A DNA stretch of 62,482 nucleotides, the filler included, from Collodictyon triciliatum (taxonomy: Eukaryota), in assembly GCA_043381765.1 (NCBI GenBank). It is 12 parts of 12 records of this genome, joined end to end, with 100 filler letters (N's around TTAATTAATTAA, not from the genome) between each part and the next. Parts side by side here need not be neighbours in the genome. Positions count along the whole stretch, not along the records: positions 16,658 to 22,106 come from JBHJMP010005189.1; 11 more parts are not named here. One strand, 5' to 3'. A program made the translations under genes and the position numbers. Of the stretch, positions 110 to 22,345 are shown piece by piece. The notes beneath the pieces were generated by a model, which was not told the origin of the DNA, made no database searches, and worked only from the letters and a program-made list of their open reading frames with translations. The first letter of the stretch is position 1; the number at the start of each line of letters is the position of its first letter.

Positions 110-1213
110 CTTGGCATGCCTAATATCTTGTTGGGTGGCTCTGATTGGTGCCCACACCATGTTTTTCATCGACTGCACCTGTGGCGAGGATATTCCAATA
201 AGAATAAATAATACTCATATGAAAATCGGCATGGTATTAGTGTATATGAGAAAATGGGATGGTTGTATTCCCAAGAAATAAATGCATATACCCATGTTGC
301 TGTGGACTGGTCGAGCTTTACAAAATTTTCCCCATATGTTTTGAAAGCATCTCCTGGTAAAAAAAAATTGGAGCAAGGTTTAGTGGAGCTGATAGTATTG
401 CTTTTGTGTAATGTATACAATGATGATATTGCAGGGATATATTGACAAAATGCAAGATACTTTATCATTATATAGTCTCAGAATGAAACTTAATAACTAC
501 AAATTTATGGATTGCTTTAATTTATCTAAAAATACATGTGAAATTTTTTTTTATTTTGAACAAATCAGTTGTAATTGTGGGTTTTTTTTTTCGTATGGTT
601 TGTGATGATGAGCCGAATTACTTTGCCTTGTCGTTTGCCCTTCATCCGAGAAGTTCATGACGAATTTTGTTAATTCCACCGATGCTTTCTCGTTTGCTGG
701 GCGACAGAATGTATTTAAGTGGTTAAGGAAAGTAGGATATCATGATGGTATATATTTGATGGTTATAAAAAAATTTTAATAAAAAAATTGATATAATAAT
801 GAATAAAATAATGAATGTTAACTTGATGCATTTATTTTATTTTATTTTGCAGTGGCCTTGTCAAAGAAGAAAGGAAAAGAACACAAGAGATGTCCCTATA
901 TCATGCCTTGTTGGCCATGGAGAACATACTTTCTGCTGTAGAGATGTATCCCCGAACACGCGACTCAAGATTATTGTATAGCAACTCGGCAGTTTTTAGA
1001 TCCTTTTTTTTTCAGGAGAGAAAAGCACATAAAAGAAAAAGATTATGTGTGAGGGGAAGCAAACCAGAAGGCCGGACCATTTTGCCAAAGACAAGGCCCA
1101 CAAACCTTTTTCCGCTGTACGATCTCTGGGGGCTCCTGGAACGCATCTAGCCCGATTTTCGTCGAGACAAAGTTTTTTGCCAATAAGAGCTTTGCTTTGA
1201 GGCGCCCTGACAT
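110..1213 (-). CDS. BAR-domain-like helical protein, 5' part (multi-exon, 3'-truncated by contig end)
   Basis: Five phase-compatible GT-AG exons splice to MSGRLKAKLLLAKNFVSTKIGLDAFQEPPEIVQRKK|DLKTAELLYNNLESRVRGYISTAE|TNEKASVELTKFVMNFSDEGQTTRQ|RDAFKTYGENFVKLDQSTATW|VQSMKNMVWAPIRATQQDIRHAK. The amphipathic N-helix followed by long helices resembles N-BAR proteins. The family call is an inference. Confidence 0.55.
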
Positions 1214-1681
1214 AAGCTGGTGCTGCGAAGCGAAAGAGTCTATGTTGCGTGATTTAGGAGAAGAAAAGAAGAAAAAGAAGAAAAAGAAGAAAAAGAAGAA
1301 AACAAAGAAAAAGAAGAAAAAGAAGAAAAGAAGAAAAAGAAAAGAAGAAAAAGACAAAAAGAAGAAAAAGACAAAAGGGAAAAGAGGACAACTCCGCTGC
1401 GTATGTCAAAACTCTCAGAAGCAGACACTTTGGGTAACCACCTTATCCTCACCCGCACCACACTTCAAGACAGAGTCCGAACCGCAACCACCTGCCAACC
1501 ACAGCGCCTGACTGGCCAAACTTCCCTGTGATACATCTGTATTCGCAGGTCAAATACTCAGTGCAAGTACGGTATCTTTATGTCTTCACCCTGCACGTGT
1601 GCCTGTGTTCTGGCACGCGGCAAAGCCAAAGAGATGCCGACAAGGCAACGGCGCACAAGACAAGTTTGCAGCAAGGCGCAT

Positions 1682-2941
1682 TTATCGGAGGCCCAGGAAG
1701 GCAGAGACGCGGCCCTTCTTGAACGGGACAGGCTCGGGCTGCGGAATCCCATTGTAGTTGCGCCAATACTGCAGAAAGGCGTTCTGAACTTCCTTTGTGT
1801 TGATGTCTCGGGTGGTTGTGCTACATGTTGATTAGTTGGGGCGGTCAGAAAAGAGTCAGGGAACATGTGAGGTTGGAGCACAGTACCCAGTCAGCGACTG
1901 AGGCGCGCCAGACATGGATTGTTGGTGTTTGTAAGTGGCTGAGGAAGTGTGTTGGGTTTGGAGTGAAGCACAGAGGGTAATAGGAGCAAGTAGAACGCAG
2001 GCGATGATCGTGGGATGCAAGTGGGCTTCAAGGATGAAAGTGCAGAAAGGGTATCGGTGTGGTGAAATAGAGCAGCTCACAAGAGAGTTACGCCATGGCC
2101 GACTTCGTAGCCGCCAAAGTAGCCCACCACAGCGCCGGCCGCAGCTCCCAACACACTCTTTGTGCGCAAGGCAAAGTAGCCACCAAATATTGCTGCTCCG
2201 GCAAGTCCGCTCTGGTTCGAAAACTTTCCGGCCTATGTAACAAGATGAAAAGACGAGTCATGTAAATAGATATCAGAGGTGTCTTGAGTTACGGTTAGGG
2301 TAGGCCGAGAATTATTAGGCATGATGGCACTATATTGTTCATTAATGCTATTTCCATGACGGATACTGTTTTTTCCCCGGTTATTAAACTTCACTTATTG
2401 AATATATTTCCTTTTATTTTATTTATGTATCTGCTTTAATTGCGATATTTAATAATGTGATAGCCTGAACAAAGCAAAAGGGAACATGGGAGATCCTAGG
2501 CTGCCCTCCGAAAGAGAGCAAATATCCAATAGAGAAGCAAACCTCGCGAACTGCCTTCATTTGTGGGCCATAAATGCGATCAACTTCGATGAAGCGGTCA
2601 AGGTCGGCGCTGTCCCACGCAGGCAGGCTTTCGAACGGGTAGAATTGGCGCGGTGTGGGCTCTGTGAAGTTTTGACATTGATCAGAGTCTTGGTCTACTC
2701 ACTCAATTTCTGCTGCCGAGTCGGGGGTGTATAGTGTGTTTGAGACGTCCCATCAGAAGCAAATAATTATGAATATATATATAAAGGTTTGAGCCTGAGG
2801 ATGAGGCGAGAGGAAGAAAATGGGTTGAAAACGATATATGGTCTTACTTACTGGACATTTGTATGACTTGCTGGTCTTGGCTAGTTTGTATGGATAAAAG
2901 ATAAGTCGACTAAACAATCGGTGGCTCCCTTGTTCTTCCAT
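1682..2941 (-). CDS. SDH6: Succinate dehydrogenase subunit 6 (plant-type SDH6)-like small membrane protein
   Basis: Exons ending at 2543, 2232-2081 and 1820-1682 splice in phase to ..LPAWDSADLDRFIEVDRIYGPQMKAVRE|AGKFSNQSGLAGAAIFGGYFALRTKSVLGAAAGAVVGYFGGYEVGHGVTLF|TTTRDINTKEVQNAFLQYWRNYNG..LGLR*. This is colinear with the recalled plant SDH6 pattern LPxW..D.D.FI..DP..GP..K.ARE, two Gly/Ala-rich TM helices, G.E...H and Q..F..WW. The first exon (ATG 2941) is tentative. Confidence 0.7.
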
Positions 2942-4839
2942 CTCTTGGGGTTGTGTTCGTGTGGGTTTGGTTCGGTGCGCCGCTCCACACACATCAGCTG
3001 ATTTATTTGATGCGGTTGATTCGCGAGGTTTGAATTTTTGTTCGTTTAGATATTTTTTATTGAATGTTCAGTGAAATAATCCATTTTTATTTATTTTCAT
3101 TTGTCAATTGTGGAATAGGGTAATATTTCCAAAAAATAGATGCACGGCCAGCCGTGGCTTTTCTGTCGATAATCGATGTCATATCTCGTCATCAGATTTG
3201 CATAATTTCAAGATGCGATAATGTGCTAGAAAAGCAAGAGAAACCACAAACGAAGTGTTCACCTTGAAATTGTATGCTCCAAATATAATATTTTATTATT
3301 TTCCACTTTAAGATGGATTATTGTGGAAAATGAAGAACAAAGAGTCAGTTTCGCGAAAAGCACATGGGTTTTAATGATTGTGGTATCTTGCTGGCAATCT
3401 GAGACAAAAGTAATAGTTGCACCAAAATTTTAGAGACAAGTATGTGCTAGATCGTAATGCAACGTTTAAACGCTCCATAATTTGGCAGTTCGTTCTGCTT
3501 CAGTCTGCACTCTCCTATGAGTCGTAATCCAAGATCGTTATTTATATGCCCCGGCCCGGTTGCTTAAAAGAGTTATGGTGCAAATCACTTCTACATTTGT
3601 TACTCTATTTCCTTTCCACAAACTAAATTGCTATTAGTATTACTGTTACTGTTGCCTAAAAATGTTGGCCCAGTTTTCTAAAAACAAGCAACAGACAATA
3701 GTCTCTTTCTTCCCTTGCAGTGGGATCACTTCTTTGTCCTTTCAAATATCAAGTCCTCGTTGTTTGCCCGTGCGCACAAATTCAGTTCGGTGTCATTACG
3801 TCCAAGTCGAAGAATTGGAATGTCGAGTAGGGAATACCTTTTGTAACTGACAAACAAACAATGCCAACCGGAAAGAAAGAACGCCAGTAATTCACGATGA
3901 CCGAGTATACCCCATGTTATGTGTATGTTAATGCAATAGATTGAGAGATACTGAACTTATTCTTACTTGTTTAGGTGCGTACACATGCACACTGTTTGCC
4001 CGCCTTCATGAAAAATTGTGGGGTAATTCCACAAGGAATTGCAGAAATTCTCCTTTTGGTTTCTTTTCAACAGTTAATTGAGAGAAAACAAAGCCGAGGA
4101 AACCGCCTTCGCCTCAAGGACAAAAATGAGCTGTGGACAAGACAGTGGAAAACCCCGGATTGTGTGGTTGGAGTTTTTGTGTTTTGGGTGAAAGAGAAGG
4201 AAAAGGAAAAGGAAAAGGAAAAGGAAGAGGAAAGAAAGAAAAAATATAGAAAGGAGAGAAAATGTTTTCACACATACTATTCCACCCGAGGTGAATCAGC
4301 TCCAACGCGATTTCTGGTTGTGTTCGAGACTGACAGAAGAGCGGATAAAGTTGTCGGTCCATGTAAGTACGCGCACGGCAGTTACTTCTCAAATCGATTC
4401 CGACGAATCCTTTCAACCATCTATCTCAGACAAGTATTACACCCTATTTCATTCAACAGGATTATTCTTTTGAGGAGAAACGAGTCTCTTTCCTTGCGTT
4501 TCTTGCTAGGTACTAAGACAGAAAGCGATACATCGTTGTTTGTCTGGTATTCACGGAAGTGGCGCTTGACCATCCCCTGGCATCGGGACCATGCGTAGCC
4601 GACAATGGACTTTGCTTAACCGGAGTATTGATACGCGTTTGTGGTTTTATAAACATACGCTCTTGCTTGCTCGGACTGTCTTCGGTGTTTGATGTTCCAA
4701 GCTTGGATTCGACTTGTGCTGTTTACTCTTGTTCCTTGGTTCTCGGTGCAATGAGCTGGGGCAGGATGTACGCACTATCTTTGGTGGGCGCTGGTTCTTG
4801 TGTTGCCTTCTCTTTGGATATCCTTTCAGATGAGGCCGC

Positions 4840-5450
4840 GCCTGATGGAAAACACAAGCCGAGCGGGGAGATCGGCGCAAGCCGCGACCCGTCGAAGCCC
4901 TGCATGTTGCAACCAGTTCTTCTGGTTCCAACGCTGGTGCAGAAAAACCCCGAGTGGCACGTAAGTCCAGGAAGACCCGCGTAAGGAAGCTGCTTGCAAA
5001 TCTGTCTGGGCGGACAGTATTTTTGTTAGATGTCAAGCAAGTCGCTTACAACAAGAAAAAGGCCCGCAGACTCACAGATGCGCTCGCCTTCTTCTTTAAA
5101 GCGAACAAACTTTGGGAAGAGACCATCTAATTGCGCTTACTGGACAGCGAAGGCCTTTTCCTGATCGCCTTCCGCACTGCAGAAAACGCCCGAAAGCTTC
5201 TGGAGCTGAAGCAAGTAAGTTTGATTGATATTATGAACATCTTCAGCAGAAGTAAACCAGCAGAGACCTCGGTGATGCTTTACCAACTACCGCTGGACGT
5301 GTGGCCGCAATTCCTTCGTGAGGAGCTGAAGCCGTTCAGACCGACCCACGTGGAGATCAAAAAGGACAAAGGCTTCTTCACAGACACGGCCGTGGTGAAG
5401 CTTCTTTGTCACAAGAACCAGCTCCATGCAAAGTTTACGGTCATGGGCAA
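4840..5450 (+). mobile_element. Decayed repeat copy 1, non-LTR retrotransposon ORF1 (RRM-like)-related
   Basis: Clearly homologous to the reverse complement of 5757-6347. It encodes ..FLIAFRTAENARKLL..VMLYQLPLDVWPQFLREELKPFRPTHVEIKKDKGFFTDTAVVKLL..AKFTVMG, a LINE ORF1-like RRM pattern. It is intronless and GC-richer than its flanks, and has an in-frame TAA at 5128-5130 where copy 2 has CAA. Confidence 0.6.
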
Positions 5451-5550
5451 NNNNNNNNNNNNNNNNNNNNNNNNNNNNNNNNNNNNNNNNNNNNTTAATT
5501 AATTAANNNNNNNNNNNNNNNNNNNNNNNNNNNNNNNNNNNNNNNNNNNN
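5451..5550. other. Artificial contig spacer N44-TTAATTAATTAA-N44 (first of 11)
   Basis: The identical 100-bp spacer occurs at 5451, 11001, 16558, 22107, 27656, 33219, 38766, 43146, 48692, 54238 and 59782. TTAATTAATTAA places stops in all six frames. Confidence 0.98.
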
Positions 5551-6347
5551 CGAGATTTCCTTCCATGTCATCGTCGCTGTCGCTGTATGCGCGTATCTGC
5601 TGTGAGTCTTGCGGGCTCAGTTGTTGCCTGGCCTTGGCTTCCTTGACCCAGTTGCTGCTTGTTTGCTTGGAAGGTGTATTCTTTTGCGGGGCTTTTACTT
5701 GTCGTTCGTTGTTCGCGGCTGGCGGACGCTCTTTGAGGATGCGCTTTGGACACTTTTTTGCCCATGACCGTAAACTTTGCAGGGAGCTGGTTCTTGTGAC
5801 AAAGAAGCTTCGCCACGGCCGTGTCTGTGAAGAAGCACTTGTAATTTTTGATGTCTCCATGTGGGTCGGTCTGAACGGCTTCAGCTCCTCACGAATAAGT
5901 TGCGGCCACACGTCCAGCGGTAGTTAGTAGAGAATCACCGAGGTCTCTGTTGGTTTACTTCTGCTGAAGCTGTTCATGATATTGCTCAAACTTACCTACT
6001 TCAACTTCCAGAAGCTTTCGGGCGTTCTCTGCAGTGCTGAAGGCGATCAGGCAAATGCCTTCGCTGTCCGGTAAGCGCAATTGGATGGACTCTTCCCAAA
6101 GTTTGTTCGCTTTCAAGAAGGAGGCGAGTGCATCTGTGAGTCTGCAGGTCTTATTCTTGTAAAAAACGACTTGCTCGACCCCGTGAAAAAATACTATCCG
6201 CTCAGACAGACTTGCAGGCGGCTTCCTTGCACGGGTTTCCTGACTTACTTGAAACTCGGGGTTTTTCCGCGCCAGCGTTGGAACCAGAAGAACTGGCTGC
6301 AACTTGCAAAGCCTTCGACGGGTCATGGCTTGTGTTTTCCGTCAGGC
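5551..6347 (-). mobile_element. Decayed repeat copy 2 of the same non-LTR ORF1-like element
   Basis: Same sequence family as 4840-5450 but with independent lesions: TAA at 5926-5924, frameshifts, and a short deletion between CAAGCC repeats. It extends about 200 bp further 3' into a basic/acidic low-complexity tail. Confidence 0.6.
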
Positions 6348-6829
6348 ACATGCTTCACTACTTCGATCGATCCATATATACGATTGTTAGCTCTTTCGCT
6401 ATTGCTCTATACATTTTCTTTTCTTTTCTATGAGCTACCCTATGTCTCCAATAACAGTACGGACTTGTTATCGATTGCGGAGCTATACCAGCGCATCAAG
6501 TGATTGCTGCAACCATAGTAACTTTTCACCTCGGTCGCCCCAGAGCAGCTAGAAGGGAAGAAAGTAAGCAAAACAAAAACGGGAAAAGGAAACACTTTTT
6601 TTTCTTCGTCCTTCATTCAACATCATATCAACGACACTACAAAGAGGAATCAAGACATCAGAAAATCAAACCAAGATAATCAAATAGCAATTGCTGTGAA
6701 TACATGTAAGATTTGTTTCTCTTTCCTAAACTCTTTGTCAAACACAGGTATAATTCATACCAAAGAAAAAAAAAGAATGTTCGATTGGTATTATTTGAGT
6801 CTTTTATTGGATCGGTGGGCAAGAAAGCT

Positions 6830-9800
6830 TTACGAGGAATCCACAAATGCCACCAAAAAATCCTTGAATCTGTAGGACACTTTATCAGGGATTTTGCCCA
6901 GACTCAATAGCTTTCGCATTTCGTTGTCTGGCTCTGAATCCTCGATTGTCTTTAGAAAGCTATCAACCGACTCTTTCGACGCAACGACATTGTCGCTGTC
7001 AACAACAGTCGCAAATATTTCTGCCAAGTCGTCAATCGTGTTGGCGGATAAGAGGCCACTCTTCATGAGTTGACAAATATAGTTAAACTCTGCTTCGTCT
7101 GCATAAACTGACCAGTTATTTTCGACCTTGTCAAAGTCTGTATCCACACTCTGTGTGTCTTCGAAACTGTCTTGGTACACGCTGTTTTCTTGAGGTACTT
7201 CATGAGAAACTGAAAACTCGTCATTGTGGAAGGAACCTAGCGCATGAGCATCTAGGTAAGATAGCATCTGTGTATTTACTAAACTATATGGTGGTCAAAA
7301 GGTATTGCCGACTAATGACCCGTCGATTAAACACGAGGAAAGGTGACAACAAGAAAAGACAGAGAAATATACCTATGTTTGGTTTAGACGATTCGCTCAC
7401 AAACGTTTCCAGCTTCAGATTTTGATCGAGATGGTGCTCTACCACCGACTCTTTGGTTTTGGTTGTTTCAGTGCCCGTCTCTGTAACCTCAGAGTCGAGC
7501 GCTAACAGATTTTCATTACCTTCGGAGTTGATAGAAACGTTTCTATGTGAATATGGCTCTGTGAGGTTATAATCAAGGGCGGTCTGGCTCTCTGATATAA
7601 AAACATTTGGTAATCCCTTATTTTCAGATTCACCACAATCTTCACTATGATGTGTCTCTTTTGACTTGAGCGAATCCAATTTTTCGTCTTTGCTCTGTGG
7701 CAGTGGATTTCCCGTCAAAGATTGATGATTTTCTTCAAATTCGGCCTCGGAGCTGAACTCGTCACAGCTGCCCTCAGATTCAGGGTCTCTAGTCTACGAT
7801 AAAGTGTAAAGAAAACGTGTGTAAAACCAAAATAATACACCAACTTGATTTATGTTAAATTCATAACCTACAGTATCTGTTTCAAAAGAATCATCGGTGC
7901 TTTCACTTTCATCCTCAGTTGTAGTATGCTCCATTTCTTTTCTACATTCCTGATGAGGTTGTAGCTGGCTATCATTTTCTGAATCGGTCGTATCTGAGAT
8001 TGTGCTTCTCAGATCTGAGCCAAACTTATCCTGCTTATCTGAGAGGTGGTTTGTCTCGGCCAAAATGAATTTGCCTTCACTTTCGGAGAAATACCTTTCC
8101 ACTTTCTCGTTTCCATCCTTTGATGAGGGACTCAGAGTGTCGTCTTCAAAAAATGGACGGGCAAGTCGGCTTGTATCTGGGACGTGTTTACATTCCTCAT
8201 CACCCTGTCCAAATATTGCTCCTTGTTTCTCATCCACAAATTGAGAACTCGATAGAAGCTCGTTTTGCGTAAATATCGAATTTCCCTCTATTAAATAGTT
8301 TGTGGTACCAAAACTACTATTCGAGGTTTCCGTAAGTTTTTCATGTTCTGGTTGTATTTTAGGATCCTCAGATGTTTTTTCCTTTGTAAAAATTGATTGA
8401 ATGCGACTATTTCTATCTATAGGGGTATATAATTATCTTTAGGTAAACTTTTTTTTCCTCTTAAATTTGATTCCAAAAAAGTATCATGTTTTAGTTCAAT
8501 TACTTTATTGATTTCATAATGAAAAATACCTTCTTTGCGTGTTGGATGATGTGCTTGGAGTTTAGAATCTTGATGCAGGCGAGGCTTTGGTGGCTTTCCC
8601 TTCAATTTGGGTTATGAGTGTGTTAAACAAAAAAATAATAATAATTTGGTATTCTATAATGAAAGTATAAAGGGTATTTTACTGGAGATGATTTAACAAG
8701 TTTGTCCAAAATAGGTTTGACTACATAGCCTGTTGATTCGAAGATACTTTCTGCATGGTTTATATATGCTTAATCATTCAGGTCGGGTTCTCAAAAAATG
8801 CAACAATTTAATAATACCTTATTTCTATATTTTTCCCCGTCATTAAAGCTTCAAATGAAAAATTGATATCAATTATCCGAATTACCTTTTGCCTTGATCA
8901 AGTAATTTGTGTAATCTACAAAACTAACATCATGAGGGGTATCGGCAACATCAAAATTCTCCAAGAGTAAAGAAAAGTGCTCTGTCGGGTAATTTCCCTT
9001 GCACGATTCCAACACCCGAGCAACTATAGCCATTCATGTTGAAACTTTGCGAAAGATAACTTGGATGAAAATATTATTGCTTTAATTTTCTGATGAATAG
9101 AGAAGAATAACCTAGATGCGAGAGAATTTTTCCTGCATAGTTGTGTTTCGATGACGTAAAAGCTGCTCGATGAAGCTGAAGCTCGTCTCTACCTATCAAA
9201 TTTTGCATAACTGGTGCTGATTTGATTCCTCTTCCCTGTCGTAAAATCAGAAAAGCCATTTATTTTTACACACTTTTTTTGTTTGCGTGCTACTTTGAGA
9301 AGAAAGGGAGTGAAGTAGCATAGAATTTGACGTTATTTTTTTGTATGTGTTGATTGGTTATTACTATTTCAGTTCTATTATCCGCGCTAGATGCTCTCTT
9401 TTTGAATAAATCACGATCGATGTTACCGGCCTTAGATTTTTCCATTCCTTTATGATCATGTTTCGAAGGTGCTGAAGTTGAGCGTGTGTACCTGAACATA
9501 CAAAGTTCAATCCACCATTGATAAAAGTATTTCAGAAATTTACACGATTGCCAAAATCCATTTGATTATCCTATCATCATTTCAAATCACGAATATAATA
9601 ATGTCAATTAAAAATTATGTCACTAAAAACCAGGAAAATTACAAGAAAAATGAAGCTTATATTTGGTACTCACGTTTTTCCAAGGATATTTGGATTATTG
9701 ACTGTGTCAATCCACTCACGGCTATGCTCAATATCAATCTGACTTCCACCACGCCTTTGTGAGATGTTGCTTTTGTATTTTTCATTCATCTGAAAATCGT

Positions 9801-16377: not shown

Positions 16378-16836
16378 GATTGATTAATGAAGGACATAAT
16401 GAGAAAGCTATCTCCTTTTTTCTTTTTTCTTTTTTCTTTTTTCTTTTTTCTTTTTTCTTTTTCTTTTTTCTTTTTTCTTTTTTCTTTTTTCTTTTTTCTT
16501 TTTTTCTTTTTTTCTTTTTTTCTTTTTTTCTTTTTTTCTTTTTTTCTTTTTTTCTTTNNNNNNNNNNNNNNNNNNNNNNNNNNNNNNNNNNNNNNNNNNN
16601 NTTAATTAATTAANNNNNNNNNNNNNNNNNNNNNNNNNNNNNNNNNNNNNNNNNNNNAAAAAAAATAAAACAAAAATAAAAATAAAAAGAGAAAGAAAAA
16701 GAAAGGAAAAAGGAAAAGGAAAAGGAAAAGGAAAAGGAAAAGGAAAAGGAAAAGGAAAAGGAAAAATTGCTAATCTGTAGCATGCATATCTATTTTCTTC
16801 CAAAATGTAACGACATGTATTCATTTCCATGAATAG

Positions 16837-19800
16837 GATTCTCTCATCAGATATGTCAGATTTTTGTCGACTCGGACAGAAAGTTGGAGAGCGGTTCAAC
16901 AGACTCTAGGACTAAGCTCTACAATTCATACGCATATCTTACTGAAGATGCCCCATATGAGTTTACAATATACATACGTGGGTGGGGCTGTCACATAAGC
17001 TTCACGATGGAAAATAATCTTGTTAATTCCACCACTGTTCCTATAAAATGCCAGGTTCGAACCTCCATCCCATTCAAAATCTCCTCATTTATGTAGTGAT
17101 ACTAAATATGTACATTCATAATAACTGTATACTTATACAATAGGCCATTTACAAGACTATTAGTGTGGAGGTCCCATTGAATCAGGTCAGTATATTTTGT
17201 TCAAATGGAAATTATCACTTGATTTTCCCAACACATTTACATAAAATATTTTAATTCATAGAATTATAAAAGCTCAGTAGGTGACTTTGAAGATTTATTT
17301 GGCTTTTATTCCCCTAGGTGGACACACCCACTGAGAAATGGGCTTACACTGTATGGTGTGGCTCAGAAAACTTTGAAAAGTTTCGAGATGTCAAGAAAAA
17401 ACCTGAAGATTACATATTGGGAGGCGGCTTGGATAGTGTGGGTGAAACGCAGGTAGCGTTTGATCCAGTGAGATAATAATTAGCTAAAATCTTATGTACC
17501 AGGAAGAAAATTTATCAGTGCGAAAATTAACCTCAAAAAAGATTATGGACTTTATCGCTGAACCTGGTTGTGATAAGCGCACCATATACGACGCATATAA
17601 AAACAACATGACATCCGTTGTAAATCCCGTTGGAAAAAACATTCTAACAGCTAAAAAGATTTATGAATTGAGCGATATAAAGAGGTAAACAAACTACAAA
17701 ATAAAAGTTTTACCTGCCCATTTTTATTCTTGAATTATTTCATTTTTAAGCAAAATCTGAATTACTGAAACTGTAGTGATACAAGACTAAAAGAACCAGA
17801 TCCTCAAAAAGAAGCATCTCCTTATGATATTATCCTTTTTAAGGTAATTTCCCTTTTTTTTATGCTATATGTTTCGATATAGTAATTCCTTTACGAATAG
17901 GCTATTAATATATGAAATAGAATTTTAAAAGTCAAATGAACCGCAGATGATGGTCAGCGAGGATTTTGTGATTTTTAGGACAGGTTTATCCCGCATGGTT
18001 GAAAATACTAACAAGACGAACGGATTTGACCATGTCGCACTCCAATTATACGTAGACACCGACAATAAGTACACTATAAAAATCCGTTATTACGATGAGA
18101 TAAAATAATTTCAAAGTAATTCGTATAGATTTGATTCAGGCAGTAGAGTGTCACTTTACAACAGCCGATTTACCTTCTACGGGAAAAAGTACCTTTCAGC
18201 TATCATGGATATACCCAATCTGTTTTCTTATATATTTTTTCGCAGTACTTACATTTAAGCCCTCTTATTATAGGGGATGGGAATTCATGGTTTCTGTGGG
18301 ACCTGATGCTCTCTCAATAGTCAAACACATACATGGAGAAAATATTTATATGAATGTATCAAGCCTCGCGTATGTTACTGCCAATAACCGGATTGTGGAG
18401 GTATCGTGTTCCCAAAATGACAAGAACACAGCAGAACCTTGCCCCTGCCTATAGAAAAAAGTAAAAAAGACCAGCAATTAAAAATACCATTGATTGTTCT
18501 TGACGATAGGTTAAGATACCAAAGTCATTTCTTGGAGATGTCTCACAAGCGATAGATTACAAATCATGGCTCATCGCTGTTGTCTCAGGAATATCATCGC
18601 CATATTCATCGAATTTCTCAAATCTGTGCACTGCTAATGTGAGTTTCTCCCTCTGGATTATGTCGTAACAACATGCTAACAAAATCATTTGTTTCTAAAT
18701 CGATTAAGGATTGTGTGGCGTCTGATATCAAACCGAAGTCTTCAAATATTTTGGATTTTTTGAATCCTCATAATCTGATGAATAGTCAGGTACGATGGCA
18801 AAGGTAGAGTGAATTGCAAGCCATAGATTGTAACAGAGACTGAACTATTATAGGTTTTTTCACCCCCAGAATCTGATGCAGTCGCGATACCTTTTGTTGA
18901 TATGAATGGAGAAACCATGGTACATATATTTTCTCACGTCGATGAGATTGGAGATGAACTTGGAATCTATCCACCACAAATGAATGGGACTCCATCTAGT
19001 CAATTGAATGGGCTATTCGATATTGTACTATTTTGATTCCTTATTCAATTAGTAATGAATGAGATAAATAACGTCATTTATTTAAAATACAAAGTTATGA
19101 TAACAATTAATTTGGATCGAATAAAGGATTTTTTTTTTGGTTTAATTCCTCGAAAAAAATACTTTTAGACGGACTTTGGATTGTCATCGAATTCTAAAAT
19201 CATGCAGTTACACATTGGGACATATAAAGTTCGAAATGATGTTGAAGGTTTTCCCATTTCATTTCAAAATCAAAAACTTTTTTGAGCAGTTATCTTGCTT
19301 TCTTTTGAAAAATTTATTGTGAATTTCGTAAATCAGTCTTTCATCAGTTTTTTTACTTAATCATGCTTAAAGATTGTATGCACTTACCTCCTTCTGTATA
19401 TTGAAAACATCGAATAATTAAAAAACATTTAGTAAGACTTGAAAATATTTTGAAGCCAAAAAACAAAAAAAACAAAAAAAACAAAAAAACAAAAAAACAA
19501 AAGACAAAAGACAAAAAACTAAAAAATTGACCATGCAATAAATAACAAGGTATTGAGCCCATTATTCTGGTCCTCATCGACAAAGACAAAAAGTACTGGT
19601 CAGGTTCGACAGAGTCCCCTAGCAATTGTGGCGTTTATATCCACCCGCAAAATGCATGGGAAATTGCCATTTTGATTGACCCATCAAAAAAATCGACAAC
19701 ATTAAGCGTAATCAAATATCTTAACCAAAATAAATCAAATATCAATACCTATGGTTCAATTTTTCTCATTTTCTAATTCCTTTGGATTGTCTAGTATTCA

Positions 19801-21728
19801 GGAACATTATCTTCAACAGTACTACCAGACTCAAATTATTATGAAGGAAACATCTTACTCATAAATATCCCCTCCAATTTTTTTGGCTCTTTATCAAGCA
19901 ACCAGTCTTGGTCTTATGCTATTGTTTCAGGGATTCGCTCAAGTTTGCTCATTTGATTATATAGTATTATTTGTTTTTTCTTTTACTTATTTAATTGTAT
20001 GTTTATCAGTTCTCAATATTAATTCATATTTTCAAAGAGGAAGGTACTTTCTCGGAGCTCCGAGACACTCAGACAAATTCATCATTCCAAAGAAGTCATC
20101 CTGGTTTAGCATACAATATAATGGACTTCGTTTCTTTTGGTAAGTCTAGCCACTGTATCATCAGATAACTTTGTATGCATTTTGCACTGATAATTAATAA
20201 TTTAATAAAGGTCATATGGACAATTACGTTCACACTTCATTATTTGGTGACAAAGAAGGGTTCAGTCTGCCGTTCATAGGATTTCAGAACAACTATTTCC
20301 TCGCCAAACTTCTATACAATGTATCATTTTAACGATTAATTTTTGTTTATGTTATTTTCCCCCTTTTATTAATAAATCGTACAAATGAAGCTAATTGATT
20401 TATAATTTTCCATAATATGATAATAAAAGGACCTCCCTAACGATGAACTTGGAACCTATCCTTTAAGTCCTTACTTTATTGGAAAGAAAGGTAATCTCAT
20501 TACATTCTCAAAACAATTAATGTTACTTTAATTACTGAACTTCGAGTATATTATTGATGATGTTTCATTTAGGTCTCTTCGATATGCTTGCCTTCTCTGT
20601 GCAATATAACTCAAACTGTACCCGTTTTTCTATAAGAATGCAATCAATACCCGAGATTTTCGATATCTCTCTTCCTGTTGGGTTCTTGTCCACACAAATA
20701 TACATAGACTCTAATCGAATTTATAAAAGTGGATGTTCCGAGTCTATTGGAAATTCAAACATATCACCAATTGCGCAATACTACTGGGAATATGCCATCG
20801 TTTCATATGGAAAGACGGCAACTGTTTATCAATGTGATGGTGGTCATTTCACTAGTATAGGCGGAAATTCCAATATTACCCGTCAAAAGGAAATCTTTTA
20901 TTTTGATATTCTCTTTGCGCACATACCAAAACCTTCTGTGTCATGGAACTATGTTGTAGTGAGTGGTGCAGTATACGATCAAATTGAGGTCTGTATTTTC
21001 CTCTTGAAAACAGAAGAGCACTTCTCTTTTATATTGATATGCACTAATTTTTGTCTCTCCTTTTCTCTCTTTTATTTTATTTTGTTTGCTTTTTTTTTTT
21101 CACAGGGGAATCTTGCTCAAGTATCAGAGACTCCCACAAGCTCAAGTTTCGGAGGAGGAGAAAATACTGGCTATGGACCAAATGTTGTGGATATGATATT
21201 ACAAGAGAAATATGCACAGAGTGCAGTTTTTTCGTCCTCAAGGGCCCCAAAGTATAAGTTTATATGAAAGCATTTAGTTACTTTTTTCTTTGAATTTATA
21301 ACAAAATTGTCTTGATTTTAATATTAAAAATAAAAGGAAAATGTATTCAATAATCCCACCGATTGGAATCGGGATATTAAACGGCACAGTCGTTTGGGAA
21401 CAAAGTGATGACATTAGTGATGAGCGAGGACATTATCCTAAGAGCATTGAGCCCTCTGTTTGTTTTATGTTTAAAAGATGACTTCCATTGATTGCTTATT
21501 TTAAGTACTAAATGAACGTTATTTTTTAAGCAGATAAGCGGGATTTTTGACTTGGTTCACTTTTCAATCATCGATGATGATTATTCCATAGTGTATCGAG
21601 TGACCCTTAAATTTTTGATGCTTAATGAAGGAAAAACCATTACCAGCCTGAAACACACATTGATTCACATCTATGTAAATTCAGATGGAATTAAAGAAAC
21701 AGGCATCAAAAGGGTAAGCTACATTTAG

Positions 21729-21827
<99 letters not shown>

Positions 21828-22036
21828 CTTTCGATATTGGAAAGAAGATGGAAATTTTGGCTGTGTTGTATTTTGTATAAAATGAGAACTATACAAAAAA
21901 CCAAAATGTCATATTTCAGACTCTATCAAATGCGAACGCTGAGCTTGGGCCTGGCACCGGTTGGGAATATGCCCTGACAATAGGACCAAATGGACTTGCA
22001 TTATTTTCATATCATCTAATAAACAATACTGTGTTG
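16837..22036 (+). CDS. Large protein with at least 5 tandem glucodextranase C-terminal (DOMON-like) carbohydrate-binding domains, partial
   Basis: Spliced exons repeat the module D..xDE.G.YP / FD...F / GF....(Q)I(Y/F)(V/I)D.D....G / WE(Y/F)A(I/L) / W....VSG / GG....(N)(I/V).D. Examples: GFSHQICQIFVDSD, NGFDHVALQLYVDTD, DEIGDELGIYPP..GLFDI, DLPNDELGTYP..GLFDMLAF..WEYAIV..FGGGENTGYGPNVVDMIL, DDISDERGHYP..GIFDLVHF..GWEYALTIG. Confidence 0.75.
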
Positions 22037-22345
22037 GTAGGATAACTTTTATTTTATTTTTTTTGATATTTTTACAATAACTAATTTATATATAATGAAC
22101 CAAAGCNNNNNNNNNNNNNNNNNNNNNNNNNNNNNNNNNNNNNNNNNNNNTTAATTAATTAANNNNNNNNNNNNNNNNNNNNNNNNNNNNNNNNNNNNNN
22201 NNNNNNCTTTTTCTTTTCTCTTTTTCTTTTCTCTTTTTCTTTTCTCTTTTTCTTTTCTCTTTTTCTTTTCTCTTTTTCTTTTCTCTTTTTCTTTTCTCTT
22301 TTTCTTTTTTGCCTTGATGCATTCAAATTATGGTTCTTTTCTTAG

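Follow-up and report, generated by a model that had tools for sequence, protein, structure and literature searches.

Tandem Glucodextran_C modules in an intron-rich gene of Collodictyon triciliatum, with a possible receptor-kinase relative in Diphylleia rotans

We analyzed a stretch of 62,482 bases from the genome assembly of the eukaryote Collodictyon triciliatum (GCA_043381765.1), hereafter the window, which is composed of about 12 contigs of ~5.45 kb each with eleven N44-TTAATTAATTAA-N44 spacers between them. One of these contigs (positions 16658-22106, G+C 31-37%) carries a gene whose exons repeat a module of the Pfam family Glucodextran_C (PF09985). The gene model was built from a three-frame view of the plus strand and extends from 16837 to 22036 with 22 exons and 21 introns, close to the figure of about 20 exons given by a first-pass annotation of this DNA. 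All 21 introns present GT..AG ends and their lengths range from 50 to 302 nt. The spliced frame comprises 990 codons and contains no stop codon, compared to 48 and 75 stops in the other two frames, and it is literally open at both ends of the contig, as that annotation had described it. These results indicate, with near certainty, a real spliced eukaryotic gene made of tandem Glucodextran_C modules.

The exons define five modules, the first and the last of which are partial, and the refined limits agree to within about 150 nt with those proposed initially. The curated cut-off of PF09985 is 22 bits, and this profile was compared to contiguous exons and pieces of open reading frame (ORF) only. 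Half of the ten raw stop-to-stop ORF pieces of the plus strand matched at E <= 1 (best E 6.7e-11), with pieces of module 1 (25 bits) and module 4 (42.6 bits) exceeding the cut-off. When the exact exons were used, seven of nine matched, and the C-terminal exon of module 4 (23.7 bits) and one exon of module 5 (23.2 bits) were above the cut-off; exon 1, which begins with 2 nt of a split codon and has no RNA cover, scored 20-25 bits. A profile built from the six Pfam-positive modules of the Diphylleia rotans protein described below matched each of the five window modules (E 2.9e-21 to 4.7e-46), including modules 2 and 3 (E 2.9e-21 and 1.9e-25), and also at least 100 among the 108 prokaryotic modules that we extracted (E <= 1.3e-14). 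The pairwise identity of the window modules is 18-27%, so the copies are indeed as strongly diverged as first described. We aligned 11 eukaryotic modules and compared them to the consensus of 90 prokaryotic modules. The PF09985 core is kept at most positions (FD, the Trp of W-E/D, W-x-Y-x-V-x-SG, FGGG, and PN-I/V-x-D); the eukaryotic modules have a shorter loop, GDExGxYP in place of GDDxGPGxYxYP, and lack QDGF.

The fold of the module was approached through module 4. We generated an alignment of window positions 20575-21249 (module 4 from its second exon onward, with the in-frame intron 18 translated) with the 90 prokaryotic modules. The resulting profile matched residues 780-1016 of glucodextranase (1UG9/1ULV; E 8.1e-43) and the "alpha-amylase" chain 9X81 (E 1.7e-20). 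These two structures were reached by the profile only, since a phmmer search of the Diphylleia isoform P0004 against the PDB yielded no match. The AlphaFold model of module 4, one module of the five, has a mean pLDDT of 79.7 and a pTM of 0.78. Its residues 138-174 fall inside the intron-derived stretch and present a pLDDT below 50, which fits with intron 18 being an intron. Foldseek against the PDB returned 1UG9 as the sole match of module 4 at E <= 0.001 (E 1.1e-5, probability 1.00, TMq 0.58), followed by the CBM9 entries 7NWN, 1I82, and 7NWO at E 0.015-0.028 and TMq 0.21-0.28, and by many immunoglobulin-like sandwiches among the lower matches. The profile and structural matches to 1UG9 therefore show that the module identity proposed initially was correct, and the reading of five tandem Glucodextran_C/DOMON-like modules is borne out by Pfam, by the Diphylleia profile, and by the fold of module 4. 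Membership in CBM9 was considered and rejected: no Pfam CBM9 match was found and the Foldseek E values for CBM9 were only those given above. CBM9, as found in the Thermotoga maritima xylanase 10A (1I82), is a distantly similar beta-sandwich but a separate family, and a likeness of Glucodextran_C to CBM9 is stated in PMC10074034. The closest characterized counterpart is domain C of the GH15 glucodextranase of Arthrobacter globiformis (1UG9/1ULV), the founder of PF09985, which has the Pfam family and the fold in common with the window modules. In that bacterial enzyme it is a single C-terminal accessory domain, whereas the gene described here combines five or six tandem copies, introns, and a eukaryotic host, and has no catalytic domain.

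The 138 residues encoded by exon 18, a diverged sequence, were used as the query of one exhaustive protein search with phmmer against 1.84 billion representatives. Two proteins were matched. The first, P0001, matched over six stretches (E 4.1e-27) and comes from EukProt, as a Trinity transcript of Diphylleia rotans; the second, P0002, is an ankyrin protein that we rejected as a spurious match. P0001 belongs to a cluster of three unannotated isoforms, P0001, P0003, and P0004 (TRINITY_DN156; EukProt EP00002 P006329/P006332/P006311). The longest of them, P0003, has 1633 residues and presents six PF09985 stretches (E 8e-134) and a PK_Tyr_Ser-Thr match (PF07714, E 1.5e-21) at residues 1493-1602. 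It contains just two hydrophobic stretches, a signal peptide at residues 6-32 and a membrane helix at 1445-1469. Since module 6, stalk, helix, and kinase follow each other in one continuous frame, we do not think that the fusion of modules and kinase is an assembly chimera. Relative to P0003, P0001 has a 21-residue insert and a short odd tail; we read the tails of P0001 and P0004 as retained introns, and these transcripts could also be secreted isoforms.

The window protein and P0003 are colinear. Residues 3-977 of the spliced window protein align to residues 90-1059 of P0003 with 29.4% identity and 424 bits, and shifting the register by one to three modules lowers the score to 167, 142, and 104 bits. 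In the module tree, window (W) and Diphylleia (D) modules pair by position for W1-D1 (100/99), W2-D2 (97/81), W4-D4 (95/89), and W5-D5 (92/91), and a small tree of 11 module rows gives the same pairing for W1, W2, and W5. The N-terminal loop of window module 2 is shorter than that of its Diphylleia counterpart. Because the two genes are colinear and four of the five window modules pair by position, the five- to six-fold array is, judging from these alignments and trees, older than the split of the window and Diphylleia genes. This agrees with the earlier view that the amplification is old. The proteins of the two eukaryotes thus have a common module in a common order, but the Diphylleia protein is known from signal peptide to kinase N-lobe and the window gene for modules 1-5 only.

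The introns differ between the module copies, as had been noted originally. When the 21 introns were mapped on the module alignment, none coincided in both column and phase between two modules. Introns of different modules come no closer than 2-4 columns, and two of the three closest pairs differ in phase. This distribution fits with intron gain, or with extensive sliding and loss, after the duplications; under our proposal, introns would have been acquired independently in each module copy.

Contigs of sequencing run X1 present splice joints at 11 of the 21 introns (introns 4-12, 16, and 21). The joints are exact, with GT..AG ends, for introns 4, 5, 6, 7, 8, 9, 11, 12, 16, and 21, and the GT..AG placement of intron 10 (18790-18853), which keeps the frame, is one T off in a run of T relative to the X1 joint. 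A twelfth intron, intron 13, is supported by a loose end at 19707, the 16 letters of which are identical to 19795-19810. A single 684-nt contig carries seven joints and reaches from the end of module 1 through the whole of module 2 into the start of module 3; exons 4-11 therefore occur in one molecule. Likewise, the joint 20320>20430 connects the linker of module 3 with module 4. The support of the other nine introns (1-3, 14, 15, and 17-20) consists of frame, splice signals, and homology only. X1 contigs do not cover 16658-17203, 17386-17567, and 19752-20115. The run is labeled "RNA?" only, none of the runs listed as containing this sequence is registered as RNA, and the RNA nature of X1 was deduced from its spliced contigs. 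Unspliced pieces are also present (19169-19418 and 20939-21146, the second of which crosses intron 18), and the loose end of one contig is presumably a cDNA template-switch primer. Because spliced and unspliced forms coexist and one loose end resembles such a primer, we take X1 to be RNA that contains some pre-mRNA or DNA. Intron 18 (20989-21105) is 117 nt long, in frame, free of stops, and unspliced in one X1 contig, so an isoform that retains it, with a hydrophobic insert of 39 residues, is possible. In the module alignment, no relative has residues that correspond to its 39 in-frame codons.

It could be argued that the gene is an artefact that arose by contamination with bacterial DNA or by chimeric assembly, or that it is a dead pseudogene, and the contig is indeed short and flanked by low-complexity repeats. 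However, the 21 introns are of the spliceosomal type, the 990-codon frame is open after splicing, and spliced X1 contigs exist, one of them spanning seven introns. In addition, run X2, a freshwater metagenome, contains DNA contigs that are 90-100% alike across exon-intron borders (e.g., 18518-18668 without a difference), and the locus is therefore present as DNA in an independent sample. The splicing data rule out this explanation and we consider its probability negligible.

Table 1. Exons, module limits, and repeats of the tandem-module gene (window positions). X1, sequencing run; P0001, Diphylleia rotans protein; Pfam, match to PF09985.
Feature	Positions	Strand	Evidence and remarks
Exon 1, module 1 core (QIFVDSD...)	16837..17054	+	AG acceptor 16835-36; in-frame stop just upstream; tblastn P0001 residues 90-161, 36% identity
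Exon 2	17144..17185	+	Inferred from GT..AG and frame; aligns to module column "isVevPl"
Exon 3, motif WAYTVWCGSENF	17318..17452	+	Pfam 13 bits; splice sites inferred; tblastn P0001 residues 177-212, 69% identity
Exon 4, module 1 end and linker	17503..17684	+	Donor 17685 in X1 joint 17682>17775 (cut +2); acceptor inferred
Exon 5, module 2 start	17777..17843	+	X1 joints at both ends
Exon 6	17947..18068	+	X1 joints at both ends; tblastn P0001 residues 293-336, 45% identity
Exon 7	18129..18188	+	X1 joints at both ends
Exon 8	18274..18400	+	X1 joints at both ends
Exon 9	18510..18638	+	X1 joints at both ends
Exon 10	18709..18789	+	Acceptor in X1; donor joint given as 18791>18855, AC..GG ends
Exon 11, module 2 end, linker, and module 3 start	18854..19024	+	X1 contig 18855-19024 joined to 19169
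Exon 12	19169..19247	+	X1 joints on both sides; another X1 contig continues unspliced to 19418
Exon 13	19550..19707	+	Acceptor equals X1 joint; donor from loose end at 19707
Exon 14	19795..19942	+	Start from X1 loose end; end inferred
Exon 15	20038..20139	+	Inferred from frame, GT..AG, and module alignment
Exon 16, linker after module 3	20211..20320	+	Donor equals X1 joint 20320>20430; acceptor inferred
Exon 17, module 4 start (DLPNDELGTYP)	20430..20490	+	Acceptor in X1; donor inferred
Exon 18, module 4 core, 138 codons	20573..20988	+	Pfam; phmmer E 4.1e-27 to P0001; X1 contigs across 20575-20754 and 20804-20968
Exon 19 (FGGGEN...PNVVDMI)	21106..21251	+	Pfam 23.7 bits; upstream intron 18 inferred
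Exon 20, linker and module 5 start	21337..21457	+	Splice sites inferred; tblastn P0001 residues 934-978, 40% identity
Exon 21	21534..21713	+	Pfam 23.2 bits; X1 contig from 21534 joins 21712>21919 (cut +1)
Exon 22, last on contig, module 5 cut here	21920..22036	+	Acceptor in X1; GT donor at 22037
Module 1 (partial)	16837-17684		
Module 2	17777-18919		
Module 3	18920-20299		
Module 4	20300-21385		
Module 5 (partial)	21386-22036		
A/G-rich low-complexity repeat, contig 5' end	16661..16765	.	Repeat scan; X1 reads cut there
A-rich repeat within 302-nt intron 12	19457-19526		
(TTA)x31.7 microsatellite within intron 21	21732..21826	.	Tandem Repeats Finder, 100% matches

We then considered further relatives and prior descriptions. 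On sequence grounds, the Diphylleia rotans transcript family is the only relative found among the 1.84 billion representatives. A word-index search of exon 18 against longer proteins gave no further relative, and the same searches with P0001 returned only P0001 itself among proteins of near length and nothing among shorter proteins; this method is insensitive. P0001 did not match any of the genome contigs searched, and in metagenome contigs no match was found with exon 18 and none with a degenerate WAYTVWCGSENF pattern. Some X1 contigs, and contigs of X4, a run from another organism in the same study, match the window at 17339-17375 only, i.e., over 37 nt of the WAYTVWCGSENF motif, and diverge on both flanks; a further run, X3, gave no match. 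The confinement of the match to 37 nt followed by divergence suggests further paralogues or orthologues of the module family in the X1 and X4 samples. In the full-text literature, the domain names led to papers on prokaryotic enzymes only and to nothing tying glucodextranase-type domains to eukaryotes or receptor kinases, and searches on Diphylleia and kinase gave nothing relevant by title or abstract. No widespread eukaryotic family of this architecture was found as already described in the literature, protein, or DNA searches. The domain itself is ordinary, but its tandem, intron-filled eukaryotic form and the link to a receptor kinase are undescribed in the literature that we searched.

What might such a chain of modules do? 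The window protein has no hydrophobic 19-mer and contains 14 N-x-S/T sites, as expected of an ectodomain. Because the gene is the positional counterpart of the Diphylleia receptor-kinase gene, we find it most likely that it encodes the ectodomain of a type-I receptor-like kinase, and the best overall explanation, which we hold with modest confidence, is that this receptor would sense glycans. The contig would then carry 990 codons from the middle of an intron-rich nuclear gene whose product is an extracellular chain of Glucodextran_C modules. We infer the missing ends from the Diphylleia relative: the complete protein would begin with a signal peptide, continue through six modules into a single transmembrane helix, and end in a cytoplasmic Tyr/Ser-Thr-type kinase. 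The chances that the window gene has such a helix and kinase appear slightly better than even by this analogy. The ligand of the module chain would be a polysaccharide outside the cell, alpha-glucan being a first guess, and its binding would be relayed through the kinase. If this reading is right, its logic is like that of the plant LysM, lectin, and malectin-like receptor kinases, which carry carbohydrate-binding ectodomains together with one helix and a cytoplasmic kinase of Tyr/Ser-Thr-like type; however, the fold and the origin of the ectodomain are unrelated to those of the plant receptors, and the kinase is seen here in the Diphylleia relative only.

Several observations weigh against this interpretation. 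The contig ends inside module 5 and the window model includes no signal peptide, helix, or kinase; a tblastn search with residues 1177-1633 of P0003 (the side of module 6, helix, and kinase) found no match elsewhere in the window. The kinase match of P0003 covers the N-lobe only and the frame degenerates after it, and P0001 (1389 residues) and P0004 (1163 residues) end before the membrane helix. The Diphylleia transcriptome presumably derives from a fed culture, so P0001 could come from a contaminant. W3, a long branch, adjoins the W2-D2 pair rather than D3, and since the identity is only 29%, the window and Diphylleia genes may be distant paralogues with different tails. The exons of modules 2 and 3 taken singly score only 11.6-14.7 bits on PF09985, and the model of module 4 leans on the alignment of prokaryotic modules.

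Some of these points would suit a secreted or wall- or surface-bound multivalent binder without a kinase, acting as an adhesin or in prey capture through polysaccharide. Two Diphylleia isoforms stop before the helix, the window contig shows modules only, and among bacteria the nearest relatives are modules that stand alone, exported or anchored, and possess no enzyme or signaling part. On the other hand, the 21-residue insert and odd tail of P0001 resemble retained introns, and in P0003 module 6 continues in frame into stalk, helix, and kinase; we therefore regard a kinase-free binder as unlikely, although worth keeping in view. The initial proposal was a multivalent surface or secreted binder; the termini of the relative point to a transmembrane receptor kinase rather than to such a binder alone.

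The nature of the ligand is a separate question. According to PMC10074034, the bacterial module is a sandwich that resembles DOMON and CBM9 and is joined to alpha-glucan enzymes, and the kinetics of a dextran-debranching enzyme suggest that its Glucodextran_C domain recognizes alpha-glucan chains. The same article states that direct binding of sugar is yet to be demonstrated for any Glucodextran_C domain, a further point against a glycan sensor. The modules could instead bind a protein, haem, or a small ligand as other DOMON domains do, or form a rigid stalk or spacer. The shortened GPGxYxYP loop, the absence of QDGF, and the predominance of immunoglobulin-like folds among Foldseek matches after 1UG9 would all be compatible with such a role. 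Yet the prokaryotic family is found consistently in the context of alpha-glucan enzymes and the likeness to CBM9, while weak, is present. We give a glycan ligand for the window modules a chance just short of even, and we consider a non-glycan role improbable.

The prokaryotic distribution of the module bears on its origin. A scan for a degenerate pattern, based on what we take to be the N-terminal motif of the family, yielded at least 120 loci in many bacterial and archaeal phyla, and the ESM Atlas clusters nearest to a Diphylleia module are 100% bacterial and PF09985. We built an unrooted tree of the 11 eukaryotic modules and 44 of the 108 extracted prokaryotic modules, which had been picked by one motif and thinned. 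All 11 eukaryotic modules fall in one group (97/93), recovered in 96% of 200 bootstrap trees, and four prokaryotic rows adjoin this group (95/91): two metagenome-assembled genomes (MAGs) of Bacillota, one Acetothermia MAG, and one betaproteobacterial MAG. The two Bacillota rows (L040 1090-2013 and L053 3275-4168) are stand-alone modules of 297-307 residues with an N-terminal hydrophobic anchor. At both loci (L040 2-2013 and L053 2-4168), the anchored Glucodextran_C gene lies directly upstream of a GH15 gene; at L053, a glycogen-debranching enzyme comes next. A HAD phosphatase and uvrC/uvrA are found on the opposite side. These stand-alone proteins, the nearest prokaryotic branch in our sample, resemble the window gene in presenting the module without an enzyme, but they carry one module per protein, their multiple copies are separate genes in GH15/debranching operons, and they have no kinase.

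This topology fits with a single bacterial import followed by internal amplification, and from the sequences compared we consider a bacterial origin of the eukaryotic modules reasonably probable. The module would probably have entered eukaryotes once from bacteria, and duplications that preceded the divergence of the two genes would have raised it to five or six copies at least. The transfer from prokaryotes to eukaryotes proposed by the first-pass annotation is consistent with the single group of eukaryotic modules beside bacterial rows; however, the tree is unrooted and its sample was drawn with one motif. Alternatively, the family could be old in eukaryotes or have moved from eukaryotes to bacteria. 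In an unrooted tree the eukaryotic group is simply one side of one branch, and the eukaryotic branches are long and deviate in composition, as indicated by warnings of the tree program. Nevertheless, the motif loci come from many phyla of bacteria and archaea, the Atlas clusters closest to a Diphylleia module are entirely bacterial, and just one other eukaryote was found in all the searches made, such that we attach little credence to this alternative.

The remainder of the window shows a heterogeneous composition. The G+C content per 1 kb is ~0.43-0.48 at 1001-8000 and 60001-62000 and 0.27-0.38 in most other segments, with a few at 0.40-0.45; owing to this difference between contigs, the assembly may be a mixture of sources. 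Several contig ends within the window are A/G- or T/C-rich microsatellite-like repeats, and the A/G-rich repeat at the 5' end of the gene-bearing contig is probably the reason for the assembly break. Elsewhere, a gene for a Prp19-type splicing factor lies at 48792-54237, with a U-box piece near 48900-49130 and a WD40 exon at 51288-51638 (PF24814, E 4.6e-50). An unbroken ORF of 467 codons (60981-62384) matches DUF229 (E 8.9e-31) and, weakly, sulfatase and phosphodiesterase families; its contig has a higher G+C content and no apparent introns, in contrast to the tandem-module gene. The ORF piece 29483-29920 matches TmcB-type TPR repeats (PF25474, E 2.7e-11). An Rfam scan of the window gave no match.

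Taken furthest, our reading would define a new class of eukaryotic receptor kinases with a six-fold, bacterial-derived Glucodextran_C ectodomain, kept module by module in Diphylleia (CRuMs) and in a second freshwater-associated eukaryote, both phagotrophs in which it would serve to detect polysaccharides from prey or bacteria. We put this forward tentatively, as a proposal that may well prove too broad. If true, it would add a new type of ectodomain to eukaryotic receptor kinases, and it would provide a clear case in which a bacterial module, once imported, was multiplied and its copies then gained introns separately from one another. The way in which little-studied predatory flagellates recognize polysaccharides would also become more accessible. 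Glucodextran_C, a common accessory domain of prokaryotes, appears in a different role here, as a conserved extracellular chain of five to six modules that is linked to a kinase in the Diphylleia relative, and the gene would offer a eukaryotic, enzyme-free setting for testing what this domain binds.

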